A stretch of 64,000 nt of DNA from an uncultured Thermoplasmata archaeon (GCA_963749235.1 CAVVLV010000001.1:410989-474988); one strand, 5' to 3'. Shown: positions 2,246 through 19,765, numbered from the stretch's first letter. Notes: generated by a model not told the origin, from the letters alone. A program made the numbers and translations.

Positions 2246-3862
2246 TTGAGTTACCTTGGGTTAGCAAAATCCGTTTTCACTCAGGGTTCTATCGTCTTGA
2301 AAGTGTATCCGCCGCCAAGGCGGATCATGAAGCCTCGGGTTAACCCAATCGGCCGCGCCATTATTTCGGTCGCGATTGCTGTGCTCTTTTTCGGTGGGCT
2401 GATGTACGCGACGGGCGACGCGATTGCGGGATCCGATGGGGGTTGCTACTGCCCCAATTGCGGCAGCTGCGGTCTGTGTCCCACAAACTACAACTTGTAC
2501 CCGGTTGCGGCGGCGGCATCAAATGAGACCAATGCGTCCATTACGTTCTATCTAAGCTCCTCGAGTGGGGAGCCCAACGGCGTCGCCAACGTCAACTTCG
2601 GTCTCAACACTTCTTACCTGTGGCCGGCTGCAACAACTGTCGGAGTAGGAGGGATGTTGTATCCAACGACAGTTTCTGTCGGATATCTTGCCCCGAACCT
2701 GACGTACGACTACAAGGTGAGCGCCTCAGCGAGCTGCACGGACACCAATGGCCACCACAACTATGCAGGGTCGACCATCGGGACCTGGACCGACAAGGCA
2801 AACACCATGGGCGCGGTGTCCGGCTACTTCACGAACACAACTGGTTCTCCGGCCCCTGTCGGATCGGTTGTGACACTCTACTGCTATTCTTCTAGCGGCG
2901 TCGCCATCGACAACAACTATGGATGGACGACAACGGCCGGGTATTACTCGCTCTACTTGCCTAGCTTTGCGGTAAATCGGTGCACCGGGGGTCTCGCATT
3001 GAACTTCTTCACGCAGAACAACAAGAACGGAAACAACTGGAACGGAAATTTCAATGTCACTTTCCTCGTTTACACGTACGGTGACTACAACATCGTCGTA
3101 CCGCAAATCTACGTCAGTCCGTACTACCCGATCGGGGTGGGACCCAGTAATGTGATGCAAACAAACGGTGCGGCTGGAAGTTACATCACGTATACTCAGG
3201 GGACGACGTTGACGACCAGCTCCACAACCTGCTGGCAGCTCTTCTGGCTGTTTACTGGGTGCGTTGCCTCCGCGACAAGCGCCGGAGCGAGCAAGAGTTA
3301 CTCAGCAGAAAACGAGAGCTTGAATGTGGACCAGCGCTTCTTAACCACGGGCACAATGGGCTTTGTTGCAATGACTAGAGCGACCAACATCTCTGTGGAT
3401 CGCTACGCGACTTTCGGGAATCCGCTTTCCCCTGGACCAGCCCCGATTCCCACCTTCATGACTCCTCAGAATTTTACGGAGTTCCACCTCTACTATGTGT
3501 CGGGCTGGGGTACAGGAGGACAGGGCCAGTTCATCCAGTACAAGTACCCTATTGGCGGCTCGGTCACGACGAGCACTGTCACTGAAACCGTGGGCGTGCA
3601 GTCGGTTGACTTCTCTATCGGTGTTGACATCTACGACGTAGATATTTCGACATCCGTGGCGGACGTAACATGGTCCCAAACTGCTACCGAGACCCAATCC
3701 AACACGCTCTCGTGGGAGGCGTTCGCGAATGGGTCGAACGGGGAATGCTTCGTGGTTTACGGGGAGGGGGGTTCTCAGTCATCTAACACCGCTGACGCCA
3801 TCGGGCTGTGGGCCTACACGCCGAACGGCGGGCCGGCAGGGTCAAATTGTCCTGACCCCTAG
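2246..3862 (+). CDS. Secreted/membrane-anchored hypothetical glycoprotein (N-terminal signal-anchor, Cys-rich CYCPNCGSCGLCP motif, carboxypeptidase-regulatory-like beta-sandwich segment)
   Basis: Hydrophobic N-terminus IISVAIAVLFFGGLMYA; many N-x-S/T sequons; AT-rich TATA-like region just upstream (2189-2245); no recognisable catalytic motifs. Confidence 0.55.
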   Translation: MSYLGLAKSVFTQGSIVLKVYPPPRRIMKPRVNPIGRAIISVAIAVLFFGGLMYATGDAIAGSDGGCYCPNCGSCGLCPTNYNLYPVAAAASNETNASITFYLSSSSGEPNGVANVNFGLNTSYLWPAATTVGVGGMLYPTTVSVGYLAPNLTYDYKVSASASCTDTNGHHNYAGSTIGTWTDKANTMGAVSGYFTNTTGSPAPVGSVVTLYCYSSSGVAIDNNYGWTTTAGYYSLYLPSFAVNRCTGGLALNFFTQNNKNGNNWNGNFNVTFLVYTYGDYNIVVPQIYVSPYYPIGVGPSNVMQTNGAAGSYITYTQGTTLTTSSTTCWQLFWLFTGCVASATSAGASKSYSAENESLNVDQRFLTTGTMGFVAMTRATNISVDRYATFGNPLSPGPAPIPTFMTPQNFTEFHLYYVSGWGTGGQGQFIQYKYPIGGSVTTSTVTETVGVQSVDFSIGVDIYDVDISTSVADVTWSQTATETQSNTLSWEAFANGSNGECFVVYGEGGSQSSNTADAIGLWAYTPNGGPAGSNCPDP

Positions 3863-3888
3863 AACTCCGGGGGCGTGACGCCCGGGGC

Positions 3889-5205
3889 GTGCCGATGGGT
3901 AGCGGAGAACCAAACCAGCCGAGACGGCGAGCCGCGTTCGCAGGCTTGGTGGTCGGGATTGTCGTTGCAAGTGGAGTCTTCGCAGGATGGGCGGTCACCC
4001 GACCGAACGCCACAGCCAGCCCTCCAGTGATTGACGACGGGCCTACGCTGTATGGCGCCCTACGCGCCATCAATGAGTCCGTACGCAATCAACTAGGTGG
4101 CCCTTGGACGCTGTACGGGGTTTGGGGAATCGCTACTCCACTACCGTTCAGCCCGACATCGATTCCTTGGCCTCGGATCAACGAGAGTGTCAACTCCTGC
4201 AGCGCTGAGTTTCCCGGAGTTACCCTTTGGAACTCCACGATCCCACTGTTTAACGGGACTTTCAACTCCGGGACGGCCCCGTTTTGGCAGTTCGTCTTCT
4301 TCTCCAACGCAAGCCATAGCATCGAGGTAGCAACCGATGTCCTCGGGACCGCTCACGTCTACGCACCCATGCCGTACAACAGCACGTGCGCGGAGTCGAC
4401 CTGGCTTTCTACCGCGTCTCCCTGGAACTGGGCTCTAATGTTGACCAGCTTTCCAGTCGATTCCTCGGTTGCCGCCAAGACGGCGTGGGCCGCAGGCGGA
4501 TCGGAGTGGACGTCGAACAATCCGGGAGGGTACGTGACGTATTACTACGGATTCGCCTACTGGGGCTCGGGCAACCTTATCGGGAACACCGTCAAGTATT
4601 CGCGATGTGGGATCGTCGGTTTCGCCGCCGTTCAACCCGTTCAGATGTTCATTACGAACCCGGGCGGGTCTCTAATTCAGAACTTCAACGGAACTCAAGG
4701 GTGCGGGAATGTGTACCGCCTGGACCCCACGATTTACGCTCCCTACGTGGTCGATTTTTCGATACCGAAAAGTTCCGGCGCAGACGCCTCGACCTGGGTA
4801 AACATGACCCTTGGTTTGACCTCCCCTCCGCTCGACAACACTTTTCCAGCCACGTACGACGCGGGCGGCTTGGTCACATGGATGGTCGCGCTTAACCTCA
4901 CCAACGCCGGTAGTTCTGCGCTGGGGACGGGGGCTCCGGGATGCTCACAATGGGTTTCGAATCTCAGTTCGTGCTCGGGGAACGCCACGGGTTGGTTTGC
5001 GGTTCTTACTTCCGCGAGCGGGGAGTGGCTCGACAGCTTCGGCACTACCTTGCACGGCTCGGCCTGGGTGATCCCTAACGCCGCATTCGTCTCTCAACAA
5101 CACATCACCATCGTTATCCCGAGTTCGTGGAACGTAACCGGAGACTCTCTGAGCATTTCGAGCACCACACAAAACGTCACGGCCAGCGGCTCCGCGAATC
5201 TGTAA
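3889..5205 (+). CDS. Secreted hypothetical glycoprotein with N-terminal signal-anchor
   Basis: N-terminal TM LVVGIVVASGVFAGWAV; dense N-x-S/T sequons; same orientation and compositional style as the upstream surface protein. Confidence 0.55.
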   Translation: MPMGSGEPNQPRRRAAFAGLVVGIVVASGVFAGWAVTRPNATASPPVIDDGPTLYGALRAINESVRNQLGGPWTLYGVWGIATPLPFSPTSIPWPRINESVNSCSAEFPGVTLWNSTIPLFNGTFNSGTAPFWQFVFFSNASHSIEVATDVLGTAHVYAPMPYNSTCAESTWLSTASPWNWALMLTSFPVDSSVAAKTAWAAGGSEWTSNNPGGYVTYYYGFAYWGSGNLIGNTVKYSRCGIVGFAAVQPVQMFITNPGGSLIQNFNGTQGCGNVYRLDPTIYAPYVVDFSIPKSSGADASTWVNMTLGLTSPPLDNTFPATYDAGGLVTWMVALNLTNAGSSALGTGAPGCSQWVSNLSSCSGNATGWFAVLTSASGEWLDSFGTTLHGSAWVIPNAAFVSQQHITIVIPSSWNVTGDSLSISSTTQNVTASGSANL

Positions 5206-5328
5206 GTGCCAGACCCGCCCGTGGTCGGGGCCTTCCCCGCTCGCTCCGCTCGCGGGTCCGCCCCGCGCCGGGATTGTTATCACGGTGAACGGATTTCACG
5301 GCTGACGCGGAAATCGACGCATGACGTC

Positions 5329-5336
5329 CTTTGACC
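5329..5336. repeat. 8-bp target-site duplication (CTTTGACC), left copy, of the IS66-family element
   Basis: Identical octamer at 6990-6997 immediately outside both terminal inverted repeats. Confidence 0.8.
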
Positions 5337-6989
5337 GTAACTGTTCACGCGGTTGAGCGCGCCCTCGAAGGCTGACCGCTCAGGATCCGGGTCAGTGCGC
5401 TCGTGATGACCTGCAGGAACTCCTGCCCCTTCCGCTTCGTCGTCTCGTGCACGCTCTTGAGACGAGCGTAGGTCCGGGCGCCTACCGCGCTCCGCATCCC
5501 GCCGCTCATCTTCCGCTTCACGCAGATCGAGCGGATGGCTCGCTCCCCGGCGTTGTTGTGCCATGGGATCCGAGCATCCCGCACGAACTCGAAGAGGTGC
5601 GACATCCGCTTCACCAGGTTCCGCGAGATCCGCGCCACATCCTCGTCCTTCGAACTCGGGTCGCACCAGCGACGGATCCGGCGTTCGTAGGCGCGGGCCT
5701 TCTTCTCCCTCGCGTGGAGCGCTGAGGCCGGGGTCTTCTCGGACCACTCCACCGCCGAGCGCACCAGCGCTCTCAGTCGATGAGCGAATCGAAGGAAGGT
5801 GGTCGGTGGGTGCCCGCGCCGCTCGTAATGCGGTGGCGATAGGTCGCGCGGACCTCGAGGGCGGATGCCATGCGCGACCTCCACCGCCTGGAGATGACGG
5901 TTGATGTGGATCCAGCAGACCCCTCGCTTCCCGTTGAGGCAGTTGTAGGCGCACCAGTCGTCGGAGACCACCGTGCCGGGGAAGTCCCGACCCAGCACCC
6001 GTTCCACGACATCCTGCCCCCGACTCGGGTCGAGCTCGTAGTAGGCGGCGAGCTCCGAGGCGAACGACCAGGCCCACCAGTTCGCGCCCCCCACTCGGAG
6101 CGAGGTCTCGTCGGGTTGCACGAGGTGCGCCGAGCGCACCTCCTCGCGGATCGCCGCGTACTCCGGCCCCAGCTGCTCCGCGGTGAACTCCAACAGCCCC
6201 TGGATCTCCCCGACACTCACCGAGAGGCCGGCCATCGTGAGGAACACCTCCTGGATGCGGCGCACGGGGAGCCCCATCATCGACAGGAGGACCACCATGC
6301 TCGCGAGGCGCGGGCCGAACTGGCGGCCCGGGAGCGCCTGGTCGGTCGTTCCCTGCACGTAGCGATGGCACCGTCGGCACCAGTAGCGGTGGACGAGGAT
6401 CCTCAGGACGAACAGGTAGGCCGGGACCAACTCGGTGACAAACCGCTCGTAGGAGTCCGATGGGTCGTCGAGCTTCTTCCCACACTCCGGACAGCGGTCG
6501 AGCGTCAGGTCTAGGGTCTCGTCCACATGGTCGGGTCGCGGACGGACGTGAGGAGCGTGGCCGGGTTGACCCCCCGGATGCCGGCCCTTGGGACGAGGCT
6601 CGGCGGGAGCGGGCATCGAGGGTCGGTCGACCTGCTTGGAGGGAGGGGTGGCGACCTTCAGCGAGGCGAGATGACGCTTGAGCCGATCCAGCTCACGTTC
6701 TCGCTCTCCGAGCTCCCGCTCCCGTTCTTCGAGCTTCCGACGGAGCTCGCGGTTCTCACGGCGGAACTCATCGCGTTCGGCCTCGAGCCGCTCGAGGCGC
6801 CGGAGGATCTCTTGGCGTTGCTTCTGGTCGAGGGTGATCGGTCCTTCGTCCTCGGGAGCGAGAAGGAGGCGGGGGTCCCGAGCGGCCATGAGGTCCTCGG
6901 GCGACCGGTGAACGGCTCGCTAGATTTCAGTACTTTCTATGAACGCGCACGCGCGCGCGTTCGGCCTGCTCAATTCGGTGAACTGATAC
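5337..6989 (-). mobile_element. IS66-family insertion sequence, single-ORF (ISBst12-like) type, 1653 bp, intact
   Basis: Imperfect ~27-bp terminal inverted repeats beginning GTAA (left GTAACTGTTCACGCGGTTGAGCGCGC; right reverse-complement GTATCAGTTCACCGAATTGAGCAGGC); flanked by perfect 8-bp direct repeats; 8-bp TSD and GTAA termini are IS66 hallmarks. Confidence 0.8.
5345..6889 (-). CDS. IS66-family transposase (514 aa) with N-terminal leucine-zipper/coiled coil and CxxC zinc-finger
   Basis: Coiled-coil ERLEAERDEFRRENRELRRKLEE; CPECGKKL...CRRCHRY zinc finger; conserved IS66 TnpC blocks (DETslrV, WAwsF, DdWcaY, HnNaaERaiR). Confidence 0.85.
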   Translation of the reverse strand: MAARDPRLLLAPEDEGPITLDQKQRQEILRRLERLEAERDEFRRENRELRRKLEERERELGERERELDRLKRHLASLKVATPPSKQVDRPSMPAPAEPRPKGRHPGGQPGHAPHVRPRPDHVDETLDLTLDRCPECGKKLDDPSDSYERFVTELVPAYLFVLRILVHRYWCRRCHRYVQGTTDQALPGRQFGPRLASMVVLLSMMGLPVRRIQEVFLTMAGLSVSVGEIQGLLEFTAEQLGPEYAAIREEVRSAHLVQPDETSLRVGGANWWAWSFASELAAYYELDPSRGQDVVERVLGRDFPGTVVSDDWCAYNCLNGKRGVCWIHINRHLQAVEVAHGIRPRGPRDLSPPHYERRGHPPTTFLRFAHRLRALVRSAVEWSEKTPASALHAREKKARAYERRIRRWCDPSSKDEDVARISRNLVKRMSHLFEFVRDARIPWHNNAGERAIRSICVKRKMSGGMRSAVGARTYARLKSVHETTKRKGQEFLQVITSALTRILSGQPSRARSTA

Positions 6990-6997
6990 CTTTGACC
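6990..6997. repeat. 8-bp target-site duplication (CTTTGACC), right copy
   Basis: Matches 5329-5336 exactly. Confidence 0.8.
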
Positions 6998-7029
6998 TAT
7001 CCTCGGTCTCATCACTGCACTATCGCAAC

Positions 7030-7521
7030 ATGAATCGGCCAGCGCGCTGGGCTGGCGTCGGATTTTTCCTGTTCTTCGCCATCCTCATCGCTTGGCAGCT
7101 CGCAGTCCACGGCTTCGAACCGATCCTTCTGGCCCTTGTCGCCGGGGACGCGTTCCTGGTTTGGTTCGTGATGTACTACACTGCTCCCGGCCCGGTCGAA
7201 CTACGGCAGGCCGAGTCGGGTTTCGAGTTTGTCTACGCGGGGGGCCGGGCACGCCAAGTCGCGATTAAGGGGGCCCAGCTACACTTCAAGCTGGTCGAGC
7301 GCGTCTTGAAACCGAACCCTGGTCGATTTGAGAAGGCCATCGACGACGCTCGCTACTTCGCGGTGGTGGGAGTCGACCGAATTGCCCTAACCCCGGAAGC
7401 GTTCGAATTCCTTGCTGGAAGCATCCTGCGTGCAGGCTACGCTACGCGGACCCGAATCAAGCCGAACCCCCCAGTGGGTTTTTGGCACATCCAGGAGTTC
7501 GATCGCGCGAAATCCAGCTGA
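7030..7521 (+). CDS. Small membrane protein: two N-terminal TM helices + cytoplasmic beta-rich (bacterial-PH-like) domain
   Basis: Hydrophobic segments VGFFLFFAILIAWQLAV and ILLALVAGDAFLVWFVMYY; no enzymatic motifs; the family call is inference. Confidence 0.45.
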   Translation: MNRPARWAGVGFFLFFAILIAWQLAVHGFEPILLALVAGDAFLVWFVMYYTAPGPVELRQAESGFEFVYAGGRARQVAIKGAQLHFKLVERVLKPNPGRFEKAIDDARYFAVVGVDRIALTPEAFEFLAGSILRAGYATRTRIKPNPPVGFWHIQEFDRAKSS

Positions 7522-7572
7522 GTTTTGCTCCGCCTCTGGATCAGACTTCCCAATCTTTCACCACCCCCTTTC

Positions 7573-10500
7573 CTAATCATCTGGGACAGCCGTGTCAGCT
7601 GGGCCAGGGGCCCCATTCTCTCTCGGCGAACTGCTGGCCCGACCTTCTGTCCCACCTTGGCTCTCCGGTTGGGCGGATTTGGGGTGGGACGGGCCCATTG
7701 GGACAGCTGCGTCAGAGATTGGTCCAGCAGGTCGCAAGTCGTAGACTCGAAACCGTGTTCCCTCAAGCCGGCTCCGTCTTCGGTCTAGTCCAAGGGACCG
7801 CAATGCAGTGCCTACCTGCTGCTCGGAGTACGTTCCACGCTCGGAGGCCCTCAGGAGCGCGAGAACCTCTTGGGGGGTGGATTCGGCTCTTCCCGCGACC
7901 AGAAGGGCGCTCACGACCTCCCGAACCTGGCTGACTAGGGGGTCGGTCTCAACCACCGGCAACGGGGGCCGGTCCGCCACCTCCGCCTCGACAGCCCCAG
8001 ACCCGCTCAGGAACGGCCAGACCTGTATCCCAGGAGTGGCGAACGGCCGGAACGCCGCCCTCCCCTCCTTCCACACCAGCCCGACCCCGTCGGCCCACAG
8101 AGAGAGGCCCGGGAACCCATCCTCGACCAACGCCAGGGTCCTCGGCACCGCGGAGCGGTCCGGCAGGACGATCAGGACCCGGTGGCCAGCCGCGCGGGCT
8201 TTCTTCACGTTCCGGATGACCTGCCCCGCCGCCTTGGCCACGGTCGAACACTCGACTTCGACATTGTAGGTCGCCGAGCCCCACTGGAACTGGCCGTCGG
8301 GGGTCAGGATGCCCGCGACCTGCTTCGGGACGCTGAGAGCTATCCCGCGCTTCTCCAGGAAGACTGCGAACTCGGTGAGCGTCTCAATGTGCTCCTCCCC
8401 CTCGTTCCGACGGCCCTCCAGGGCCGCCAGATGGACCTGTCCCCGCGAAGTGAGGCGGAGTCGCCCGGCGTCTTCGTTGGGCTCCACATCGCCTTCGGAA
8501 GCGGCCAGCGCGAGCGCACCGTCCAGCTGGGCCCCAGGGAGCATGGTCGAGTCCTCCAGCTCCTCCCGGGTCCTCGGGCCCGTGGAGAGGCCCGCCATCA
8601 CGCCTTGGACCACCTCGGGCCCGACGAGCCACGGGGAGGCCTCTGAGTCCTCCCGCTGGGCGTATCTTCGGGAACTCTCGGTCACGGTCCGGTGGTTCTC
8701 GGTCGCCAAGGGACCCAGAGGCGGGCTGGGGTCGGTCGTGAGCTTCACGAGGCCCCCTGACACGGCCAGGGCGACCTCGTGCGGCCGGAGGCCGTCCACT
8801 AGGTCCTGGGGGGTCCAGCCGTGGGTCTGCCCGTTGACGATCTTCCACGCGTCGTCCATGTCCTCGACGCCCAGCGAGAACAACAACCACGCGTCCACGT
8901 TGCCGAGCAGGGCGGCCCGGACCCGGGGCGGGACGCGGTGGAGGAACTGCGTCGCGACCACGACGTGGAGGCCGAACTTCGCTCCCTCGCTCAGCATGTC
9001 GGCCAGCGCGGGGATGGCGTAGTTGTGCACCTCGTCGAGGACGAGGTAAACCGAGTGGTCGGGCCGTCCGGACCGCTGGACCGCCGCCCACAGCTGGCTC
9101 AGGTAGACCGCGCCGAGGAAGTTCGCTCCTTCGGCTCCCAGAGCCGATTTGGAGAGGTTCAGGAGCAGCAGGCGGTGCCTCAGCAGGCGGTCGAAGGAGA
9201 CCGCCCCGCTCCGCTGGCAGAGCGCGACCCGCAACAGGGGGTTGGTCGCGATCTTGCCGACCTTGTCGAGCGACGACATCGTGAACTGGTAGTCCAGCCG
9301 CGGCAGGTGCCGCTCGAGGAAGTCGCGGAGAGGCCCGGGAGGGGCGGTCCGGATGAATCTCTGGAGCGCGGGCTTGGACGAGAGCAGGTGGTACGCGTCG
9401 ACCAGATTCGAACCCGGTGTCTGTGACAACCCTTGGACCAAGGCGCGGAGGACCAGTTCGGCCCTCCCGCCGATGCTCTCCTCGCCCCACGCGCTCCGGA
9501 TCGCGGCGAGGAGGTCGCCCGCGAGCGCCTCGGCCCAGCGGTCACGTTCTGTATCGCTTTCTTCGTCGTCGACCGGGTCCGGCTGTCGGAGCAGGTTGAG
9601 GGGAACCGAGACCATGGTTGTGCCATCTTCTTGGAAGGTGGCGTGGGCCGGGTCGATCTCGATTGTCTCCGAGGCAATCTCTGGAGAGAGGCGCGACTCG
9701 ATCCCCCCTACGAGCGTCCCCGTGGGCTCGACCACGACTACGGTCGCATCGGGTTGCTTCGCGAGGATCTGGAGAACCAGATTCAGAGCCAGGGTGGACT
9801 TTCCCGACTGGGTCCGCCCCAGTAGGGCCGCGTGATTCCACTCCGGGGGGAGTGCCACGTGACGACCGTCATAGGCCCCGAGGATGAACTGCGGACGGGG
9901 ACTGGGCTCGGGATCAGGGTGGTACCGCAAGACCCGAACCGTCGGCAACTGGGGGGCGACCGGGGAGCGGGAAACCAGGCTCTCCCTACCCGCCCTTCCC
10001 CGCGGAGCTCCTGCGTACGAGCACTCCGGGTGGTACGTGGCCCACGGGATCGAGAGAAGGTGTCCGAGTTCGGTCGCGGAGACATCGCGGCGCCCGCGCC
10101 GGTTCGAGAACCGCGCGAAGTCGTGGGTCGCGAAGGCCGCGTGGAAGGGTTGCTCCTTCTTGCGCGGAATGACCTTCCACGTCCGCCAGGGGACGCCGCC
10201 GAGGGTGGTCCACTGTTCGAGCCATGCCCCGAGCGCGATCAGCGACTGGTCCGGTTGCGGGCCCATCAAGTGGGCGCGCAGCTCGACGTGGTAGGCTGGT
10301 TCGGCCCGACGGGCGTCCATCTCGGCCCGCAAGGCGCGGCCGTGCCGCTCCGCGTAGCTCATATAACGGGCCGAGAAGAGACCCGACTCCCAGACCCGGG
10401 CCCGCTGGAACAGGAGCTGAAGGACCACGTCGTGGTCCTGGAGCGTCTGAGAGCCGAGGGTCCGAAGGAGGAAACCTGCCGCGTCCGCATCTTGAGGTAT

Positions 10501-10821
10501 GCGAAGTGGCAAGTGGTGATGCCGTTGCACCGCGACCGCCCGTGCGAAGATCCCGCGGGTGGTGAGGTCGGCGAGCGGGCACGCGATCGGCGACCCCGCC
10601 GCGACGCGATGGCGCGTGTTCTCGAGATAGATCAACATCGATTCGAGGTCGGTCGCCTGGGGAGACCCGAGCGCGTATCGGACCCGCCCCGCCGGCTCTC
10701 GGTGGATCTCGAGCCAGAACGGGGCGAGCGAGGTCCAGACCAGCGGTGGCATCTCGGGCGGCTCCTCGGTCGGCGTGGGCAGCAGCAGTTCGCGGTGGAC
10801 ATTTTCAGTGGTGGCGTCCAT
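7573..10821 (-). CDS. Large (1082 aa) FtsK/HerA-superfamily P-loop ATPase with N-terminal unknown domain, central wHTH, PD-(D/E)xK-like nuclease-like domain and C-terminal wHTH
   Basis: Walker A GRTQSGKST; Walker B VYLVLDEVHN; FtsK-like LHVVVATQ motif; segment ILTPDGQF...YNVEVECSTVAK resembles restriction-endonuclease-fold core; helix-turn-helix-like segments near residues ~740 and ~1000. Confidence 0.7.
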   Translation of the reverse strand: MDATTENVHRELLLPTPTEEPPEMPPLVWTSLAPFWLEIHREPAGRVRYALGSPQATDLESMLIYLENTRHRVAAGSPIACPLADLTTRGIFARAVAVQRHHHLPLRIPQDADAAGFLLRTLGSQTLQDHDVVLQLLFQRARVWESGLFSARYMSYAERHGRALRAEMDARRAEPAYHVELRAHLMGPQPDQSLIALGAWLEQWTTLGGVPWRTWKVIPRKKEQPFHAAFATHDFARFSNRRGRRDVSATELGHLLSIPWATYHPECSYAGAPRGRAGRESLVSRSPVAPQLPTVRVLRYHPDPEPSPRPQFILGAYDGRHVALPPEWNHAALLGRTQSGKSTLALNLVLQILAKQPDATVVVVEPTGTLVGGIESRLSPEIASETIEIDPAHATFQEDGTTMVSVPLNLLRQPDPVDDEESDTERDRWAEALAGDLLAAIRSAWGEESIGGRAELVLRALVQGLSQTPGSNLVDAYHLLSSKPALQRFIRTAPPGPLRDFLERHLPRLDYQFTMSSLDKVGKIATNPLLRVALCQRSGAVSFDRLLRHRLLLLNLSKSALGAEGANFLGAVYLSQLWAAVQRSGRPDHSVYLVLDEVHNYAIPALADMLSEGAKFGLHVVVATQFLHRVPPRVRAALLGNVDAWLLFSLGVEDMDDAWKIVNGQTHGWTPQDLVDGLRPHEVALAVSGGLVKLTTDPSPPLGPLATENHRTVTESSRRYAQREDSEASPWLVGPEVVQGVMAGLSTGPRTREELEDSTMLPGAQLDGALALAASEGDVEPNEDAGRLRLTSRGQVHLAALEGRRNEGEEHIETLTEFAVFLEKRGIALSVPKQVAGILTPDGQFQWGSATYNVEVECSTVAKAAGQVIRNVKKARAAGHRVLIVLPDRSAVPRTLALVEDGFPGLSLWADGVGLVWKEGRAAFRPFATPGIQVWPFLSGSGAVEAEVADRPPLPVVETDPLVSQVREVVSALLVAGRAESTPQEVLALLRASERGTYSEQQVGTALRSLGLDRRRSRLEGTRFRVYDLRPAGPISDAAVPMGPSHPKSAQPESQGGTEGRASSSPRENGAPGPADTAVPDD

Positions 10822-10945
10822 GCTCTCGAGGAGGGAGGGTCGAGGGTGATACGGCCGCCGGCGTTCGCGGAAGATGAACGGAGCCGCCTTTCACAATTCA
10901 CTGGCCAACTTCGCTACTTAGTGTCGAGTCCGCTCGCTGACCGCG

Positions 10946-11215
10946 GTGGCGGCCGAGATGGCGCAGGGAGGCATCCACGTTTCCTCCAAGGCATCGTCCG
11001 AAGCACAGTCCTCGCGGCCGCCATCTCATTTCCCGCGGTTCGGTGGAGCGGACCTGATGGTTTCGCTCCGAGAGCTGAAGGCGATGGTCCAAGGGCTGGA
11101 CGCGTCGAACCCTGTTCGGATCCTCGTCCTGGGCGAGCCCGACGAGATCCCACGTTCCGAGTATGCAGCCAAGGTGCCTGGGTGGTACCGCCTTATCGTG
11201 ACCCCGGCGGATTGA
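10946..11215 (+). CDS. Small hypothetical protein (89 aa) between ATPase and integrase, opposite strand
   Basis: Only non-overlapping ORF in the 370-bp gap; no recognisable motif; could be non-coding. Confidence 0.25.
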   Translation: MAAEMAQGGIHVSSKASSEAQSSRPPSHFPRFGGADLMVSLRELKAMVQGLDASNPVRILVLGEPDEIPRSEYAAKVPGWYRLIVTPAD

Positions 11216-12527
11216 GCACGACCTGGTGCCCATTCACGGTCGTGACAACCGTCCACCCCTCATCGAGGTACCGGGGCAGTTCCGTACCTTCCACGAGGCG
11301 TTGGCGTGTCCCGTTCGCATCGGCGTTCTGTCCCATCTTCTTGGTCACGAGTTCCTGGAACGCGCCCACGTCCAAGCTGTCGAAATCCAGCTTGGCGAGC
11401 TCCTTCTCGGTGTATCCCAAGCCCATCAGCATCACCTTGGCCATCTTGGATTGCGCGTCCTGATCGGTGCGCGAAGGGACCGTGGAAAGGAACGGCTCGC
11501 AGCGCCGGTAGGCCGCCCGCATCTCCTCGACCATTGTCGGCTGAAGTTTCTTCGATAGATTGTACCGGCCGCTCACGCCCAGGTCATGCCCGAGGATCGC
11601 CTCGCGGAAGTCCCGCGGGATACGCCCCTTCGCCTCCGCGAGGAGCAGTTGCGTGGAGGCGTAGCTCCGGAGCACGTAGGGCCTCCAGCTGGTGTCGCTC
11701 GGCACCACCTTGTTGATGGCCGTCCGCAGTTCGGCGGTGAGCGCTTTGACCGTCACGAACCCGTTCTCGGTCTGCGTGTCGCGAACTGCGACAAGAGGGG
11801 ATTGTCCCGAGAGAGCTTCCGGGTCCACGGTCGCGCCGCTCCTCCACCGGGGCCGAGTGCGTCGCTCCTTCAGGTAGGCGATGAGGGTCTGAGCAAGCTC
11901 CTCGGAACCGAAGGTCACGTAGGCACGGCGGTTCTTGCTCAGCGCCCCCGGAACCCGGATCAAGAAGGGCAGGGTTCGGAATTCGAGGGTTCGTACGTCC
12001 AGTTCCGGCAGGTCGCCCAGCCGGAGGGCGGTATCGCCGGACCGGTAGACGGAGAACGCGCCCGGCCGAAGTCCCGAGTGAGCCATGAGCAGCGCGGATA
12101 CCTGGCCCCGCAGCGGAAGGGCGCGGAGCAGCCGCCCGAGTTCGTCCTGCGTCGGAACCCGCTCGTTCTCGATCGAGACGCCGCGGATCACGGCGAGTCG
12201 GGGGAAACCGTGGAAATCGACCTCGTGATGTCGGAGGAAGCTGGACACCCCGACGAAGGTCTTCGCGATGTACGTCGTGAGGCGTCCCCGCTTCTGAAGG
12301 TCGCCTGCATACACCACCCATCGCTTCCGAAGGCGGGAGGGATCCGAGCGGGCCTCGGCCAGCAGTTCCGAAGGGCCAAGACCGACCTCATGGAGGCAGA
12401 GGCCCAACTGTCGCAGGTTGACGTCCGCCGTCCTGACGGAACGGAGCTGATTCTCATCGAACCAGCTTCGGATCAGGGGGTCTTCCCGCAGTTTCTGGTG
12501 ATTGAGCCGCGGGGGTTTTCGGGGCAT
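11193..12527 (-). CDS. Tyrosine recombinase / phage-type integrase (444 aa) with ~100-aa C-terminal extension
   Basis: Conserved catalytic region ...VLRSYASTQL...ILGHDLGVSGRYNLS (R, H-x-x-R, Y); located immediately downstream of a tRNA 3' end. Confidence 0.8.
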   Translation of the reverse strand: MPRKPPRLNHQKLREDPLIRSWFDENQLRSVRTADVNLRQLGLCLHEVGLGPSELLAEARSDPSRLRKRWVVYAGDLQKRGRLTTYIAKTFVGVSSFLRHHEVDFHGFPRLAVIRGVSIENERVPTQDELGRLLRALPLRGQVSALLMAHSGLRPGAFSVYRSGDTALRLGDLPELDVRTLEFRTLPFLIRVPGALSKNRRAYVTFGSEELAQTLIAYLKERRTRPRWRSGATVDPEALSGQSPLVAVRDTQTENGFVTVKALTAELRTAINKVVPSDTSWRPYVLRSYASTQLLLAEAKGRIPRDFREAILGHDLGVSGRYNLSKKLQPTMVEEMRAAYRRCEPFLSTVPSRTDQDAQSKMAKVMLMGLGYTEKELAKLDFDSLDVGAFQELVTKKMGQNADANGTRQRLVEGTELPRYLDEGWTVVTTVNGHQVVLNPPGSR

Positions 12528-12581
12528 GAGTGGGCACCCCTATTCCTCCCTATAAAGAATCCAACGCCCCGAAATTTGGGA
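12528..12581 (-). promoter_or_regulatory. Putative integrase promoter (TTTATA box ~27 nt upstream of ATG on minus strand)
   Basis: Minus-strand sequence ...GGATTCTTTATAGGGAGGAATAGGGGTGCCCACTCATG; AT-rich island in a GC-rich context. Confidence 0.4.
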
Positions 12582-12688
12582 CGCCCGTGCTGGGATTCGA
12601 ACCCAGGTCTGAGGCTCCGCAGGCCTCTAGGATAATCCATTGCAGCAGGTCGGGGGAAGACCCCGGCCCGTAGCTACCCCACACGGGC
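12582..12688 (-). tRNA. tRNA-Arg(GCG), intron-containing (107 nt; ~33-nt intron in the D-arm region)
   Basis: Acceptor GCCCGTG/CACGGGC, T-arm CTGGG-TTCGAAT-CCCAG, anticodon arm GAGGC-CTGCGGA-GCCTC, discriminator G; D-stem GGGT...ATCC with A14,G18,G19 separated by a 33-nt insertion. Confidence 0.55.
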
Positions 12689-12730
12689 AATCGGTTGGGA
12701 CGATGTCCCGGCGGCGGCGAGCGGGGTCGG

Positions 12731-12781
12731 CTATAAAAGCCCGGGGACGCGCGCTACGATGGGCGCGCCACACTTTATAGC
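12731..12781. promoter_or_regulatory. Divergent promoter region with two TATA boxes (GCTATAAAAGC and CTTTATAG) between tRNA-Arg and gatD
   Basis: AT-rich palindromic TATA elements at 12732-12739 and 12774-12780, spaced appropriately for the tRNA (minus) and gatD (plus). Confidence 0.45.
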
Positions 12782-12822
12782 GCGCCTCTCTCCCCGATTC
12801 ATCCGGCACCCGGATTCGCTCG

Positions 12823-14139
12823 ATGGGGGACGAAAAGGGGAAGGACCCGTGGCCCGAACTGCGCCTATTGCCGATGGGTCGGCGCATCCAGTTGGAGGAC
12901 GGCCACGGAGGGACCTGGGTTGGCACCGTCGTTCCCAATCATGGGTTTACGGCCGACCGGATCCTTCAACTTAAACTGGCGAACGGCTACAACGTCGGGC
13001 TGCGGATCGGGTCCAGCGCCCGATTCCATGTGCTGCCGGACGTCTCCCGGGATGCGCGCGCCGCGCCCGCAACGCCGGCCGCCCGGCGCGGGCGCGAAGG
13101 GGAGCCGTGGGTCGCGTTGCTGACGACCGGAGGGACGATCGCGTCCCGGGTCGACTACGAAACCGGAGGGGTCCGCCCGGTCAAGGGAGAGGACGAAATC
13201 CTCGCCTTCTATCCGGAGCTCGAACGGTCGGGACCGGTGCGAATCCTCCCCGTGTTCGATCGACTGAGCGAGGATCTCCGGCCCGACGATTGGATCGTGC
13301 TCGGTGAGAAGGTCGTCACCGCGTTTAAGGACGGGGCCGTCGGAGTGGTCATCGCTCACGGGACGGACACGCTCGCGTACACTGCGGCTGCCCTCAGCTT
13401 CCTCTTGGTCGACCTCCCCGGGCCGGTTGCCCTCGTGGGTGCTCAGCGATCTCCCGACCGGCCTTCCTCGGATGGCCCCTCTAACCTCCAGGCCGCGGTC
13501 CAGGTGGCACGGGAAGCGCCGCTCGGTGAGGTGGTCGCCGTGATGCATTCCGGCCTCTCGGATACGAGCTTCGCGATCCATCGGGGCACTTGGGTTCGCA
13601 AGATGCACTCGAGCCGTAGGGATGCGTTCGAGACCCGCAACGGACCCCTGCTCGGGAAGGTCGAAGGAGGCCGCGTCACGGTGGCCGAGTTCGGTCGCCC
13701 CCGGACGCCCGGCCCGGCCCGTTTGGATGGCCCGATCGACCCGCGGGCGGCCCTCCTCTGGTTTTATCCGGGGCTGCATCCGACTTATGCGCAGCTCCTC
13801 GTCCGGGAGTTGCGCGGGATCGTCCTCGCCGGTACCGGTCTCGGCCACGTTGGGGCCGATCACCTCGAGTGGATCCGAGCCGCGACCGCCGCGGGCAAGG
13901 TGGTCGCGATGACGACCCAGTGCCTCGCCGGTCGAGCCGACCCGTACGTGTATGCCACTGGCCGCGAGCTCCACCATGCCGGGGTGGTTTACCTCGACGA
14001 CCTCCTGCCCGAGACGGCGTACACGAAGATGCTCTGGGCGCTCGGCCATTCCGATACTCCGGCCGGGGTCGTGGAGCGATTGAAGACCCCGCGGGCGGGA
14101 GAGTTCCTCGACCGTCACACAGGAGGGCCGCCGACATGA
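12823..14139 (+). CDS. gatD: Glutamyl-tRNA(Gln) amidotransferase subunit D
   Basis: Asparaginase-like TGGTIAS motif, archaeal GatD N-terminal domain; stop overlaps gatE start. Confidence 0.85.
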   Translation: MGDEKGKDPWPELRLLPMGRRIQLEDGHGGTWVGTVVPNHGFTADRILQLKLANGYNVGLRIGSSARFHVLPDVSRDARAAPATPAARRGREGEPWVALLTTGGTIASRVDYETGGVRPVKGEDEILAFYPELERSGPVRILPVFDRLSEDLRPDDWIVLGEKVVTAFKDGAVGVVIAHGTDTLAYTAAALSFLLVDLPGPVALVGAQRSPDRPSSDGPSNLQAAVQVAREAPLGEVVAVMHSGLSDTSFAIHRGTWVRKMHSSRRDAFETRNGPLLGKVEGGRVTVAEFGRPRTPGPARLDGPIDPRAALLWFYPGLHPTYAQLLVRELRGIVLAGTGLGHVGADHLEWIRAATAAGKVVAMTTQCLAGRADPYVYATGRELHHAGVVYLDDLLPETAYTKMLWALGHSDTPAGVVERLKTPRAGEFLDRHTGGPPT

Positions 14140-16012
14140 AGGCCGGCCTCGAAGTGCACCAGCAGCTCTCGACCGGCAAGCTGTTCTGTGCGTGTCCGAC
14201 CGAACTTTCCGAGGAAGTCACGCGGACGTTCGTCCGCTCTCTCCGGGCGGCCGGCGGCGAGAATCGTTCCGTTGACGCCGCAGCCGCCCTCCAAGCCGCG
14301 CGCGGCTTCCAGTATCGATACGAGGTCGTCCCACCATGCTGTCACGTCGAGATGGACGAGGAGCCTCCGCACCCGCTCGACCCGCCCGCCCTGGAGGCGG
14401 CGCTCCTGCTCGCCCTCATGGTGGGAGCGCGTCCCGTCGATGAGGTCGAGGTCATGCGGAAGATCGTGGTCGACGGCTCTACGACTTCCGGTTTCCAGCG
14501 AACGGCGTTGGTGGCCACGGGGGGCCACATCGAGGTGAACGGACGTACTCACCGCATCGACTCGATCTGTCTCGAGGAGGACGCCGCCCGCCGGATGGGG
14601 GAATCGCCCGACGGGGTCACGTACCGGCTCGATCGGCTCGGGATCCCGCTCATCGAAGTCGCAACGGGACCGGACATCACGAGCGGGGCCGAGGCCCGTG
14701 AGGTCGCCGCCGAGATCGGTTCGCTCCTGCGCGCGACCGGGAGGGTCCGCCGGGGGATCGGCACGATACGGGAAGACCTCAATGTCTCCACCGAAGGAGG
14801 TCGACGGATCGAGATCAAAGGGGTCCAAGAGCTCCGAAAGATCCAGGACTACGTCGATCGGGAGGTCGACCGCCAGGGAGTGCTGCTGGGGGTTCGGGAC
14901 GAGCTCGTCCGTCGCGGGGGCCTCCGTTCCGGACGACCCTCCGCGCGACGTAACGGCCCTGTTCACGGAGATCCACTACGGACCGATGGCGGAGGTCCAT
15001 CGAACCGGCGGCGTCGCCCTCGCGCTCGTCCTGCGAGGATTTCACGGCCTTCTCGCGTCCCCCGCCGGCACCGAGGAGCGACTCGGAAGGGAGCTCGCGA
15101 GCTACGCGAGAGCGGTGGGCCTGGGCGGTTTGCTCCACTCGGACGAGCTACCCGGCCATGGGATCGAAGAGGGGCTCCTGCGCGAGATGCGCCCGGCCCT
15201 CGGTCTGGGGGAGCTCGATGCGTTCGTTCTCGTGTCCGCCCCGTCCCGAGAAAAGGCTCTTCGGGCGCTCGAGCGGGTCGCGACGCGAGCCCGTGCCGCG
15301 ATCGAGGGGATACCCGAGGAAACGCGCGACCCACTTCCCGACGGTCGGACCCGGTTCTCCCGCCCTCTCCCGGGCCGGGATCGGATGTATCCCGAGACCG
15401 ACGTGCCCTCCGGTCGAGGTCACGAGCGAACTCCTCACGAGGCTCGGCGGCGACCTTCCCGAGCGGCCCTCGACACGACGGGAGCGATTGGCGCGCCAGT
15501 ACGAACTTCCGATGGAGCTCATCCGGCAACTGGACAGTACCGAGAGCCTCGAGGAGTTCGAAGCCCTTGTCCAGCGGGGTCACCCCTCGGGTCTGGTGGC
15601 CCGTCTCCTGACCCAGGACGTCCCCGCGGCGCTCGGCGACCGTCCGGATGCCGCCCCGTTCGCGCTCGACCTCCTCGACTCCGTTCTCGCGGCGGCCGCG
15701 TCGGGCCGCTTCTCGAAGGAGGGGATCCCGGCGGTGTTGGCCGCGCTCGTCGCCGGGGCGCAGTCGGTCGATGCCGCCGTCGATCGCGCGGGGTTTTCGA
15801 CCCCTCCGGGCGAGGACCTCGATTCGATCGTGGATCGGGTTGTCCGTGCGAACGCTCTCCTGGTCCAGGAGCGGGGCGAGGCCGCGCTGTCTCCCCTCAT
15901 GGGGGACGTCATGCGGGAAGTACGCGGCAAGCGCGACGGTCGTGAGGTGGCCGAATCCTTGCGGCGCGCGATCGCGCGACTCCGAAGCGGGGATCCGGCG
16001 TCGTCTCCGTAG
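14136..16012 (+). CDS. gatE: Glutamyl-tRNA(Gln) amidotransferase subunit E, reading frame interrupted twice (+1 at G5 run ~14914-14918; +1 near ~15408)
   Basis: N-terminal MKAGLEVHQQL...CPTEL; middle and C-terminal GatB/YqeY-like segments continue in the other two frames; total length ~625 aa matches GatE. Confidence 0.75.
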
Positions 16013-16019
16013 GAGCGTC

Positions 16020-16754
16020 ATGGTACCCCCTTCGCGTCGGCGTGCGCTCCCCCGTCCGCGTCGCGCATACCGAGTGGTCGTGACCGACGTCGACGGGACC
16101 CTGACCGACGCGTCGCGCCGATTGGATCCGGGGGCGGTCGCGGCGATACGCTCGCTCGAGGACCGCGGCATCCCGGTGGTGCTGGCGACCGGGAACGTCC
16201 TCCCCATCGCTCTCGCGCTGCACCGCTCGCTGGGACTCTCCGGCCCGATCGTCGCCGAGAACGGAGGTCTGGTCTGGACTTCGGGACCGAACGGCGAGAA
16301 CCGGATCGAGCGGCTGGCCAACCCGGCTCTCGCCCGCTCGGCGTTCCGGATCCTCGTGCGGGCCGGTCTTCCGGTACGGCGCCTCTTCACCGATCGATGG
16401 CGCGAGAGCGAAGTGGCCCTGGAGGCGAACGTTTCGGTGGCCCGCATCCGCCGCGCGCTCGCGGGACGCCCGGTCCACGTGGAAGCCACCGGGTATGCGA
16501 TCCACTTGATGGAGTCCGGTGCGGGCAAACGCCCTGCGCTGGACCGGGTCTTCGCCGGACTCGGGATCGGCTGGTCCGAAGCGATCGTTCTCGGGGACGG
16601 CGACAACGACGTCGAGATGCTGCGGGCCGCGGGGTTCGGCGTGAGCTTTCCGTCGGCCAGCCCCCGGGCCCGCGCCGCCGCCCGGTACGTGACCCGCCGG
16701 GCGTACGCGGCGGGATTTGTCGAAGGCCTTAAAACGAGCGGAGTTCTCGACTGA
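16020..16754 (+). CDS. HAD-superfamily hydrolase, archaeal phosphoglycolate-phosphatase/Cof-like
   Basis: Motif I VVTDVDGTLTD, motif III K, motif IV GDGDNDVEM. Confidence 0.7.
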   Translation: MVPPSRRRALPRPRRAYRVVVTDVDGTLTDASRRLDPGAVAAIRSLEDRGIPVVLATGNVLPIALALHRSLGLSGPIVAENGGLVWTSGPNGENRIERLANPALARSAFRILVRAGLPVRRLFTDRWRESEVALEANVSVARIRRALAGRPVHVEATGYAIHLMESGAGKRPALDRVFAGLGIGWSEAIVLGDGDNDVEMLRAAGFGVSFPSASPRARAAARYVTRRAYAAGFVEGLKTSGVLD

Positions 16755-17307
16755 CCGGTCTCCACGGGAGAGACCCGCGATGTTCGTCGGTCAGTGCGCG
16801 CGGTGCGGGATTCCGGCCACGCTCGGGTGTACGATCTGCGGGCGGACGTTCTGCCGCGGCTGTCTCGACGCCGACGAGCGACTCTGTTCGGATTGTCTGC
16901 AGTCCCAGCGCCAGACCAAGAACCCTGTCGAAGCCCGGGCGCCGCCCTCCCGTCGGATCGTCCGGCCGCCCAGCGCCCCCGGTCGGGTCTAGGTACTCGA
17001 CGCCGGGGAGTACCAGGGGACCGCCCGGGGTGGCGCGGCCGACCCCGAGAAGGACGACCCCCATCGCTCCGGTCACGAGACCGAAGCCGAGGACCGCCCA
17101 CGCATACTCGCCGAAATTGGGACCGATATGGACGCCGAACACCGTGGCGGGCGAGGTCCGCGCGGCCCAATGGAGCGCTACGTTGACGACCACGCCGAAG
17201 ACCCATCCCATGGCGATGAGGATCCCACCGGCAACGAAGTACCCTGCGCGCTCGTCCCCGCCCGGGTTCTCCGGCGGGGTGGCGGGGGCCTCTTGCAGGT
17301 CGTCCAC
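16729..17307 (-). CDS. Hypothetical membrane protein (2 TM) - 3' extent uncertain, overlaps zinc-ribbon ORF on opposite strand
   Basis: Hydrophobic helices YFVAGGILIAMGWVFGVVVNVAL and AWAVLGFGLVTGAMGVVLLGV; C-terminal 100 aa low-complexity, possibly artefactual. Confidence 0.3.
   Translation of the reverse strand: MDDLQEAPATPPENPGGDERAGYFVAGGILIAMGWVFGVVVNVALHWAARTSPATVFGVHIGPNFGEYAWAVLGFGLVTGAMGVVLLGVGRATPGGPLVLPGVEYLDPTGGAGRPDDPTGGRRPGFDRVLGLALGLQTIRTESLVGVETAAAERPPADRTPERGRNPAPRALTDEHRGSLPWRPVSRELRSF
16780..16992 (+). CDS. Small zinc-ribbon protein (8 Cys in four CxxC pairs)
   Basis: CARCG...CTICG...CRGC...CSDC spacing typical of a double zinc ribbon; overlaps an antisense ORF. Confidence 0.45.
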   Translation: MFVGQCARCGIPATLGCTICGRTFCRGCLDADERLCSDCLQSQRQTKNPVEARAPPSRRIVRPPSAPGRV

Positions 17308-17381
17308 GAGGGCGCGACCGGGCCGGCCGATTATGAGGTTTTGGGAAGGCGCTGCGGCGTGGGGGGGCCGGGCAGCGCGGG

Positions 17382-18005
17382 GTGGTCGGACGCTTTATTT
17401 CGGACGCCCCCGTCCTCCGGACGTCGCTCATGACGCCGCCCGATCCCCCCCGGGAAGTGACGTACCGCGCTGCCACCCTTGCGGACGCCGCGCGGCTCGC
17501 CGACGTCCATCTCCGCTCGGTGCTGGTCGCCGACCGCGGCGTCTCCTCCGAGGACCAGCTCGCGCGTCTCTCCGAGCAATTGGTCGAGCGCGAAGGGCGA
17601 TGGCGCGAGCAGCTCGCCGCACGTCCGGAGGAGCCCGTGCTGGTGGCGGAGCAACCGCCCCTCGGGATCATCGGCTATGCGGTCGGCGCCGCCACCCGCA
17701 AGCCGAGCTTCGGATACGATGGTGAGCTCGTCTCGATCTACCTGCTCCCCGAGTTCCAGCACCGGGGGATCGGACGGGAGCTCGTGCGCCGAATGGTTCG
17801 GACCCTCTATGAACGGGGGTTCGAGCGAGTGCTCGTCCGGGTGCTCACGGCGAACTCGGCTCGTCACTTCTACGAGCGACTCGCGGCGTACCCGATCGGG
17901 GTGACGAAAGTGACCGTCGGAGAGCTGGAACTCGAGGAGAGCCTCTACGGATGGCCGGATGCCGCCCGGGCGTTCGAGGCGAAATCGAGCCCGACCGGCG
18001 TCTAG
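17382..18005 (+). CDS. GNAT-family N-acetyltransferase
   Basis: Acetyl-CoA binding motif QHRGIGRELVRRMV and GNAT core. Confidence 0.7.
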   Translation: MVGRFISDAPVLRTSLMTPPDPPREVTYRAATLADAARLADVHLRSVLVADRGVSSEDQLARLSEQLVEREGRWREQLAARPEEPVLVAEQPPLGIIGYAVGAATRKPSFGYDGELVSIYLLPEFQHRGIGRELVRRMVRTLYERGFERVLVRVLTANSARHFYERLAAYPIGVTKVTVGELELEESLYGWPDAARAFEAKSSPTGV

Positions 18006-19762: not shown

Positions 19763-19765
19763 CGT

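Follow-up and report, generated by a model that had tools for sequence, protein, structure and literature searches.

Actinomycete integrative and conjugative elements (AICEs) integrate into tRNA genes of bacterial mycelial hosts, use a single FtsK-like protein, TraB, and have no glycoprotein module. The catalytic tetrads of tyrosine integrases are R..YxxR..Y in the archaeal pNOB8-type, R..KxxR..Y in the SSV-type, and R..HxxR..Y in bacterial and SNJ2-type enzymes (PMC5861418). Integrative and conjugative elements (ICEs) and cryptic integrated elements of Thaumarchaeota (PMC6563490), like Sulfolobus conjugative plasmids, carry a tRNA-targeting tyrosine recombinase, a VirD4/TraG-like ATPase and membrane proteins, and occur in tandem arrays. 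Archaeal elements that carry Fsx1 have XerC/D-type recombinases, HerA/VirB4/VirD4-type ATPases and an anchored surface glycoprotein, and contact- or fusion-dependent movement has been proposed for them (PMC9259645). Tandem integration of archaeal elements and loss of the integrase after integration are also documented (PMC8371274, PMC6563490). The current work concerns 64,000 nt of an uncultured Thermoplasmata archaeon of high GC content, about 68-71% (GCA_963749235.1, CAVVLV010000001.1:410989-474988; the window, in which positions are counted from its first letter). The region left of a tRNA-Arg gene in this window is very probably an integrated mobile element, inserted by its own integrase, recently transferred, and bearing a putative transfer apparatus of ATPase, membrane and surface proteins.

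From right to left, the locus contains gatD, tRNA-Arg, the integrase, a gene for a protein of 52 amino acids (aa), an ATPase, a 163-aa protein, an IS66 insertion sequence and three sequon-rich anchored proteins. The integrase gene (11193-12527, minus strand) is intact, encodes 444 aa, and lies in the same orientation as tRNA-Arg (12582-12688, minus strand), 54 nt downstream of it. No match to the protein was found in Pfam or NCBIfam at threshold, PF00589 scoring 12.8 bits against a cut-off of 27.1; among 30 relatives, 9 matched PF00589 weakly (best E=7.3e-5). Its match to phrog_1 (integrase) has an E value of 2.8e-6. In the AlphaFold2 model (pLDDT 85.8), the protein has the two-domain fold with a C-terminal catalytic domain that defines tyrosine recombinases, and the top PDB matches in Foldseek were all tyrosine recombinases (XerA, IntI, lambda Int, XerH, Cre and Tn1549 Int; probability 1.0). 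R154, K198, Y284-x-x-R287, H314 and Y322 are invariant in 30 sequences with 42-76% identity to the window protein, the catalytic residues being assigned from spacing and motif, not by superposition. No PDB sequence was matched, even with a profile of the 30 sequences, and tblastn against 72,556 plasmids returned nothing. The family has at least 484 members, to which some sources already give the name integrase. The modelled fold and the residues indicate that this open reading frame (ORF) encodes a very divergent tyrosine recombinase. An earlier reading of the window, made by a model without database searches (the sequence-only reading), had placed a tyrosine integrase directly downstream of tRNA-Arg on the same strand; the fold, the residues and the 54-nt spacing agree with it.

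Like the pNOB8-type integrases, the window enzyme has the R..YxxR..Y tetrad, a gene unsplit by integration, the 3' end of a tRNA as its target, and a position by the att junction (definition in PMC5861418). Unlike them, it has no detectable sequence similarity to any plasmid-borne integrase or PDB entry and falls below the PF00589 cut-off; it bears about 95 extra C-terminal residues and is invariably linked to the convergent 52-aa gene; and its hosts are mesophilic soil and peat Thermoplasmata, not Crenarchaeota. An SSV-type "suicidal" integrase was considered and rejected, because the gene is intact beside the tRNA while integrated; the residue at position II is Tyr, not Lys.

The strongest evidence for mobility comes from comparison with other species. 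A total of 83 loci, with labels in L, were fetched for comparison, and contigs of another Thermoplasmata species that bear a copy of the element are here called L-type. The integrase protein is identical on 12 contigs of that species from varied peat and bog samples, always adjoining gatD and gatE. Window positions 2638-5336 and 6989-12703 differ from the L-type contigs at 15 of 8,415 positions (99.82% identity); 11 of these are clear substitutions, and the remainder lie at the edges of the identical block. In positions 12705-20093, which contain gatD, gatE, a HAD hydrolase, L11 and Spt5, the same comparison gives 1,217 differences in 7,389 positions (83.5% identity). The switch in identity falls between 12459 and 12704, an interval containing tRNA-Arg. 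A copy with 99.8% identity is thus present at this site in a different species as well, which means that the element reached one or both of the two lineages very recently.

Such a junction might be produced by an assembly chimera, in which the core of one species is joined across the conserved tRNA to the island of a co-occurring species. The tRNA and about 16 nt upstream of it are indeed identical in both species, and contig L012 breaks inside the tRNA at 12666. However, the independent contig L011, from a metagenome-assembled genome, shows the core allele of the window joined to the element and has 0 mismatches in 14.9 kb, and the junction recurs on the 12 contigs of the other species, which come from separate samples. 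The window copy is also distinct from the L-type copies, with a private IS66, no IS4 and the 15 differences, and its gatD and glycoprotein genes are both recorded on a contig of more than 1 Mb. Moreover, homopolymer-indel errors point to long reads, which would span the 107 nt of the tRNA gene. A chimera is therefore highly improbable. The indels in question are single-base changes at 14916, 15406, 16992, 21930, 22344 and 23822, and also at 2009, relative to the short-read contigs L011, L012 and L013. Two of them break the frame of gatE, which is intact with 624 aa in L011; they are most likely consensus errors, not pseudogenisation, and this long-read signature fits the contig of more than 1 Mb. 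L012, a Logan unitig-style contig of the window's species, ends inside the tRNA intron (its position 1 is window 12666), 8 nt beyond the point predicted by a k=31 merge with L-type sequence; another co-occurring variant at the tRNA site may explain this break.

The site was then compared among relatives. In essentially all of 57 gatD loci fetched from GTDB species representatives, tRNA-Arg abuts gatD, while the DNA past the tRNA is hypervariable, nearly every ORF being unique or common to few loci. Of the 42 loci that are informative, extending 1.5 kb or more past the tRNA, 6 have the window's integrase family at the site, with 100, 76, 43, 41, 40 and 40% identity; a fragment was found in a seventh, short locus. 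The sequence-only reading had started the housekeeping genes right after the tRNA: the adjacency of gatD and tRNA-Arg stands in about 50 relatives, but the start of gatD (12823-14139, plus strand), the first core gene right of tRNA-Arg, was corrected to 12823.

These counts also bear on the possibility that the integrase is a chromosomal XerA-type resolvase in conserved core DNA, which the sequence-only reading had itself named as the finding that would overturn its island. The top structural match is the archaeal XerA. Nevertheless, identity to it is 15-16%, and the window protein has 444 aa with an extra C-terminal region, compared with about 280-300 aa. Its family is at the tRNA in only 6 of the 42 loci, always abutting the tRNA 3' end, and its gene lies in DNA with 99.8% identity between species that share 83.5% identity in the core. 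A resident resolvase in conserved core is thus effectively refuted.

The crossover point would lie within the putative attL core, assigned by comparison to 12575-12603 (minus strand), which comprises the last ~22 nt of the tRNA (GGTTCGAATCCCAGCACGGGCG) and TCCCAAA. A third species, L019, is near-identical to the window and the L-type contigs through promoter, tRNA and intron, and departs from them exactly after GTCCCAAA, that is, the discriminator and TCCCAAA. Element-specific DNA therefore starts at or below 12574. The native flank of L019 (CAAACAAATCAGCCTCGGGGCAG) is absent from the window and from the L-type contigs.

At the same site, relatives have many direct repeats of the tRNA 3' end. 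Copies of the last 16 nt of the tRNA, with at most 1 mismatch, were found 16 further times in 12 loci in direct orientation and 0 times inverted, whereas a shuffled core averaged 0.01 copies over 349 kb. The repeats delimit cassettes that lack an integrase, measure 0.9-3.4 kb and stand in tandem rows of up to three; at the end of each cassette, the last 16-22 nt of the tRNA recur in direct orientation (L025, L028, L035, L036, L043, L047, L052, L060, L068, L071, L023 and L030). At least four families can be told apart by the element-side flanks of the cassettes, and a pseudo-T-arm inverted repeat is present in each; many repeat copies are followed by similar outer flanks, that of L047 matching the sequence directly 3' of the tRNA in L019. 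In L028, the whole cassette is one beta-propeller surface-protein gene. The relatives' cassettes, one to three in tandem, resemble arrays that build up by accretion at a tRNA att site and lose their integrases (PMC8371274); the window, unlike those arrays, has no such internal repeat. The cassettes may be remnants, or may be mobilised in trans. Bacterial cis-mobilizable elements offer a further comparison for them.

The same integrase family is also found at another tRNA. In L082-L085, tRNA-Ala(CGC) is followed, after about 40-90 nt and on the same strand, by integrases 45-48% identical to that of the window. Since the geometry is the same at both tRNAs, the family behaves as integrases specific to tRNA 3' ends, with targets that differ between subclades. 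Decayed copies were also observed: in L082, a frameshifted ATPase (12487-16256; 82-84% identical in pieces) lies behind tRNA-Ala in a chromosome of 2.18 Mb, and in L046 the integrase at the tRNA-Arg site is split (8596-9708; 148 and 325 aa). Thus, elements erode in place.

Introgression by homologous recombination, with the block of tRNA and promoter as an anchor and the integrase as a passive passenger, would also bring a nearly identical segment into a divergent core. The tRNA and promoter are near-identical over about 150-200 nt in three species, enough for homologous recombination, and the left boundary of the identical block is hidden in the comparisons. Against this, the visible boundary agrees to the base with the end of the att-like core, of which relatives carry 16 repeats; the same integrase family occupies the same position behind a different tRNA; and the integrase is intact, with all catalytic residues. 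Introgression is accordingly improbable, and integration at the tRNA is the preferred reading. An integrase by the tRNA 3' end, variable presence and foreign ancestry, the marks of a tRNA-integrating island, were all found here. The three comparisons proposed in the sequence-only reading all favour an integrative element. Synteny is kept for gatD and tRNA-Arg but not for the integrase, which is thus not conserved core; a discontinuity at 12.6-12.7 kb separates 99.82% from 83.5% identity to another species; and repeats of the tRNA 3' end, though absent from the window, as had been suspected, are frequent at the site in relatives.

The tRNA itself was missed by standard searches. ARAGORN and Rfam at gathering score called no tRNA in the window; at a permissive threshold, the Rfam tRNA model matched 12588-12644 on the minus strand (model positions 6-65, 25.9 bits, E=0.003). 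The gene consists of a 5' exon (12672-12688), an intron of 32 nt (12640-12671), and a 3' exon with discriminator (12582-12639), all on the minus strand. The intron is non-canonical, lying in the D-loop after tRNA position 17, and the acceptor stem pairs across this insert. A 3-4-3 bulge-helix-bulge motif predicts the cutting sites, and with 12640-12671 excised there, the remaining sequence forms a clean 74-nt cloverleaf of tRNA-Arg(GCG). The motif has H = GUAG/CUGC, the bulges CUA and AAU, and the inner helix CGGG/CCUG. Because the outer helix is missing, it has the relaxed HBh' form, known from D-loop introns of Methanopyrus and Aeropyrum (PMC5829648).

An alignment of 53 loci (the window and 52 related loci; 45 distinct sequences) agrees with this structure. 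The 5' exon is invariant and the 3' exon has one substitution, while all 45 introns differ, with lengths of 31-35 nt. Helix cells are paired in 352 of 360 cases (97.8%) in the proposed register, compared with 26-46% with a shifted partner; compensatory GC/AU/UA/CG changes occur in the intron helices, bulge 1 is invariant, and bulge 2 is A-N-U. Conserved exons, a variable intron and the H and h' helices are the features of archaeal introns of the bulge-helix-bulge type, splicing here being predicted from sequence. The intron-containing tRNA-Arg of the sequence-only reading is thereby upheld by cloverleaf and covariation. The ARAGORN intron-mode model, a tRNA-Arg(TCG) with a 37-nt intron in the anticodon loop, was rejected, its "anticodon" falling in a species-variable segment; no further cryptic tRNAs were found at 36-38.5 kb. 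An HBh'-type D-loop intron at position 17/18 of tRNA-Arg(GCG) is kept throughout this clade of soil and peat Thermoplasmata (L018-L074) with strong covariation. The intron lies 5' of the att core and therefore gives the tRNA gene no protection from integration.

Directly past the integrase, and convergent with it, lies the gene of the 52-aa protein (11057-11215, plus strand; MVSLRELKAMVQGLD...RLIVTPAD), which is tail-to-tail with the integrase gene and overlaps its 3' end. Purifying selection on it is strong: the window and L082 have integrases that are 48% identical, and their copies of the gene differ at 21 nt, 19 of them in third codon positions, with 1 aa change. Homologs follow every integrase of the family examined for this gene (L015, L082-L085), and Pfam gave no match. 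This pattern of conservation indicates a strongly constrained partner of the integrase, and a candidate recombination directionality factor or regulator of recombination. The 111-aa "orphan" ORF proposed earlier on the other strand is spurious: it is an Arg-rich antisense shadow of the 52-aa gene, it overlaps the 3' end of the integrase gene, and gene callers choose the 52-aa gene.

The largest gene of the element encodes a soluble P-loop ATPase of 1082 aa (7573-10821, minus strand). Its core, about residues 310-700 including a helical insertion, is TrwB/VirD4-like, and is flanked by extra regions of about 300 aa at the N-terminus and 380 aa at the C-terminus. The Walker A (335-342) and Walker B (D596-E597) motifs are invariant. 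For the AlphaFold2 model (pLDDT 79.2), the best PDB fold match was TrwB (E=1.7e-11, TM-score about 0.6 on the target), followed by TrwK/VirB4, TdpA, HerA and Cagbeta. Matches to TrwB_AAD_bind and TraD are weak, and tblastn found plasmid VirD4/TraG genes with 20-29% identity, including those of a 29.5-kb Sulfolobus plasmid and of haloarchaeal plasmids; no PDB sequence matched the ATPase or the glycoproteins. The FtsK/HerA-type ATPase of the sequence-only reading is thus retained, with the modelled fold of a VirD4/TraG-like coupling ATPase as its nearest relation. An invariant PD..ExE..K motif at residues ~841-874, together with small nuclease-fold matches in a viral structure library, suggests that a PD-(D/E)xK-like nuclease domain may be fused to the TrwB-like ATPase; Pfam matched nothing in the N- and C-terminal regions and gives this domain no support.

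Next to the ATPase gene, in every case, is that of the 163-aa protein (7030-7521, plus strand), which has two N-terminal transmembrane helices and is a possible membrane partner of the ATPase. The bPH-like nature given for it in the sequence-only reading stays putative. Three surface-protein genes follow on the plus strand: a 438-aa candidate glycoprotein (436 aa as called; 3889-5205) with an N-terminal signal anchor and 14 N-X-S/T sequons; a 538-aa ORF (2246-3862; probably 511 aa from 2327) with an N-terminal anchor and 10 sequons; and the 3' part of a 1057-aa YVTN/NHL beta-propeller protein (1-2188) with a C-terminal anchor and 20 sequons, which runs off the left edge of the window. All three are membrane-anchored and sequon-rich, in agreement with the surface glycoproteins proposed earlier. 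Its position and low GC suggest that the beta-propeller gene may belong to the element; the L-type copies do not reach this gene.

Members of the ATPase family are common throughout Thermoplasmata, and in L075/L076, L077/L078 and L079 they are linked to canonical PF00589 integrases. In L075/L076, the order is ATPase, 163-aa homolog (40%), 438-aa homolog (38%), and further paralogs of the 438- and 538-aa proteins. L084, which has the window's integrase family at tRNA-Ala, carries homologs of the ATPase (65%), the 438-aa protein (40%) and the 538-aa protein (34%). Overall, 438-aa homologs have 38-40% identity in L075/L076/L084 and 28% in L079, and 538-aa homologs 34% in L075 and L084. Because synteny is kept in L075/L076/L079/L084 with either this or a canonical integrase, comparison of these loci shows the ATPase, 163-aa and 438-/538-aa genes as a conserved backbone with exchangeable integrase modules. 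The region had earlier been called accessory in character; the comparison refines this, these genes being no random cargo.

Two other functions can be considered for this gene set. The ATPase, with its possible nuclease-like domain, could be anti-phage defence cargo: PADLOC reports mad8 (E=5e-13) with weak HerA matches, the structure resembles TdpA and HerA, and the nuclease-fold matches and the invariant PD..ExE..K motif lie in the C-terminal part. Steady linkage with the two-helix membrane protein and glycoprotein genes across differing integrases, however, is atypical of defence cassettes, the best fold match is TrwB, and the plasmid homologs are annotated VirD4/TraG; a defence role is unlikely, if still worth keeping in mind. 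A pleolipovirus-like provirus would make the glycoproteins spikes, the two-helix protein an internal membrane protein, and the ATPase a virion NTPase. The gene set does resemble that of SNJ2, a temperate pleolipovirus whose integration target is a tRNA gene (PMC5861418), and of similar viruses, and the best matches of the ATPase among viral structures are phage proteins. Yet the membrane protein and glycoproteins have no PHROG match at the sequence level, a scan of 2.9 million viral contigs revealed no relatives of the ATPase or integrase, the ATPase has its nearest fold match in the conjugative protein TrwB, and no capsid or replication gene was seen. A provirus is thus quite unlikely.

A mobile element with a putative DNA transfer function is preferred to either, and it can be compared with the ICEs and Fsx1 elements. 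The window element shares with the Thaumarchaeota ICEs and Sulfolobus conjugative plasmids the recombinase, the VirD4/TraG-like ATPase and the membrane proteins, and tandem arrays at one site are common to both. Those ICEs have a pair of VirB4/TrbE and VirD4/TraG, whereas here the only visible ATPase is VirD4-like, soluble, 1082 aa long and furnished with extra domains. In the classification of PMC6563490, the visible part would count among the cryptic integrated elements, with a single ATPase of conjugation type. As in Fsx1 elements, a recombinase, an ATPase and a membrane-anchored surface glycoprotein are combined in one integrated element; unlike Fsx1, the 438- and 538-aa proteins lack sequence similarity to Fsx1 or to solved structures, and their anchor is N-terminal. 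The likeness to AICEs, taken from their general description, is that the element may rely on one FtsK/HerA-superfamily translocase in place of a full type IV secretion system.

Other features of the region concern its later history and its composition. The IS66-family element (5337-6988, minus strand) has a single 514-aa transposase (5345-6889; PF03050 E=7e-40, and zf-IS66), imperfect terminal inverted repeats, and an 8-bp target duplication, CCTTTGAC, at 5329-5336 and 6989-6996. No L-type copy contains it, the 8-mer CCTTTGAC being present once in each; this IS66 is a secondary, recent insertion into the element, intact as had been proposed, and private to this genome. The ORF at 6527-7033 was discarded, being antisense inside the IS66 transposase. 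In L001-L004, an IS4-family element (DDE_Tnp_1; ~18228-19600) interrupts the homolog of the 538-aa gene at the point corresponding to window 2638, and a second, distant IS66-family transposase runs from 20638 to the contig end, which explains the shared break point of these contigs.

A GC-rich non-coding motif at 5234-5255 (minus strand; CCGCGAGCGGAGCGAGCGGGGA) marks the element family. Its form GCGAGCGNAGCGAGYGGGGA, within a conserved block of ~40 nt, occurs once in the 64-kb window. Of the 83 fetched loci only 16 have it, all with this or a related element (including L075, L077, L079, L083 and L-type contigs), and none of about 50 element-free gatD loci does. It is a candidate terminator, binding site or origin.

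GC content is 52-62% in the glycoprotein block, 59-72% in the block from integrase to ATPase, and 68-71% in the core. A GC discontinuity had been suggested as a check: the glycoprotein block is indeed low in GC, but the integrase-ATPase block is close to the genome value. The boundary at 12.6 kb is undefinable from composition alone and is defined by the comparative data.

Several results weigh against an integrated element with its own transfer apparatus. The first group concerns its ends. No distal copy of the att core beyond chance level was found in the window with a 30-mer or 18-mer (at most 3 mismatches) or a 16-mer (at most 4 mismatches); the sole 16-mer site with 4 mismatches, at 5260-5275, is at chance level (about 0.5 per strand expected in 14 kb). 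L013, which extends 1,450 nt leftward past the window edge, adds 1.45 kb in which there is likewise none with at most 3 mismatches in 16. Neither was one found within ~10 kb in any locus with this integrase family (17.6 kb for L084), and the flanks of the related elements L075, L077, L079 and L082-L085 contain no att repeats. No excised circle or empty site was found for the two species, a metagenome scan with the lineage-specific tRNA flank returning two known contigs. The limits of the element and its competence for excision are accordingly putative. The GC content of the integrase-ATPase block, nearly that of the host, also speaks against foreign DNA. The second group concerns transfer: the ATPase has no transmembrane segment, unlike true coupling proteins, and shares the resemblance to HerA/TdpA/mad8 defence ATPases given above; no VirB4/TrbE, relaxase, pilin/VirB6-like or replication gene was found among the visible genes with Pfam, NCBIfam and PHROGs; and a transfer function is proposed on the grounds of a single ATPase fold and of linkage between the genes.

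The missing distal copy, which the sequence-only reading had also noticed, has a likely explanation. Since none appears within ~10 kb, or 17.6 kb in L084, these elements are large, and the island of the window most likely continues past position 1. At least 12.6 kb of it lies in the window, and its whole size is probably more than 17 kb; related elements exceed 17 kb.

The following course of events would account for these observations. The integrase of the element would have recombined attP with the 3' end of tRNA-Arg(GCG), attB being the last ~16-22 nt of the tRNA and about 7 nt more. The tRNA would stay intact because the element supplies an identical 3' end, and the intact integrase gene, which has a TATA-like box of its own, would then stand 54 nt away on the downstream side. 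IS66 has since entered the window copy, and IS4 the copy of the other species. The 52-aa protein may modulate integration or excision, and the ATPase, membrane and surface proteins may form a cell-to-cell DNA transfer apparatus, either conjugation-like or dependent on contact or fusion. A bolder proposal is that the soluble TrwB-like ATPase, with its possible nuclease-like domain, the two-helix membrane protein and the N-glycosylated surface proteins are a minimal and undescribed Thermoplasmata DNA transfer apparatus, working by contact or fusion and not by a VirB4-powered pilus, and lying behind the very recent spread of this element between species in peat soils. This remains speculative and is more probably wrong than right, although it deserves attention.

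In kind, this is an ordinary tRNA-integrating archaeal mobile element; its family is undescribed in the searchable literature. Current domain libraries do not recognise the integrase family, so its islands are likely overlooked in annotation, and its short, well-defined tRNA targets mean that the integrase could serve as a genetic tool. The comparison of element and core is evidence, at the level of sequence, that genes passed very recently between two species of uncultured archaea, and this transfer can be linked to a defined integrase and target site. With a head module of integrase and 52-aa protein, and a second module of ATPase, membrane protein and glycoproteins, the family is a candidate route of DNA exchange among Thermoplasmata.

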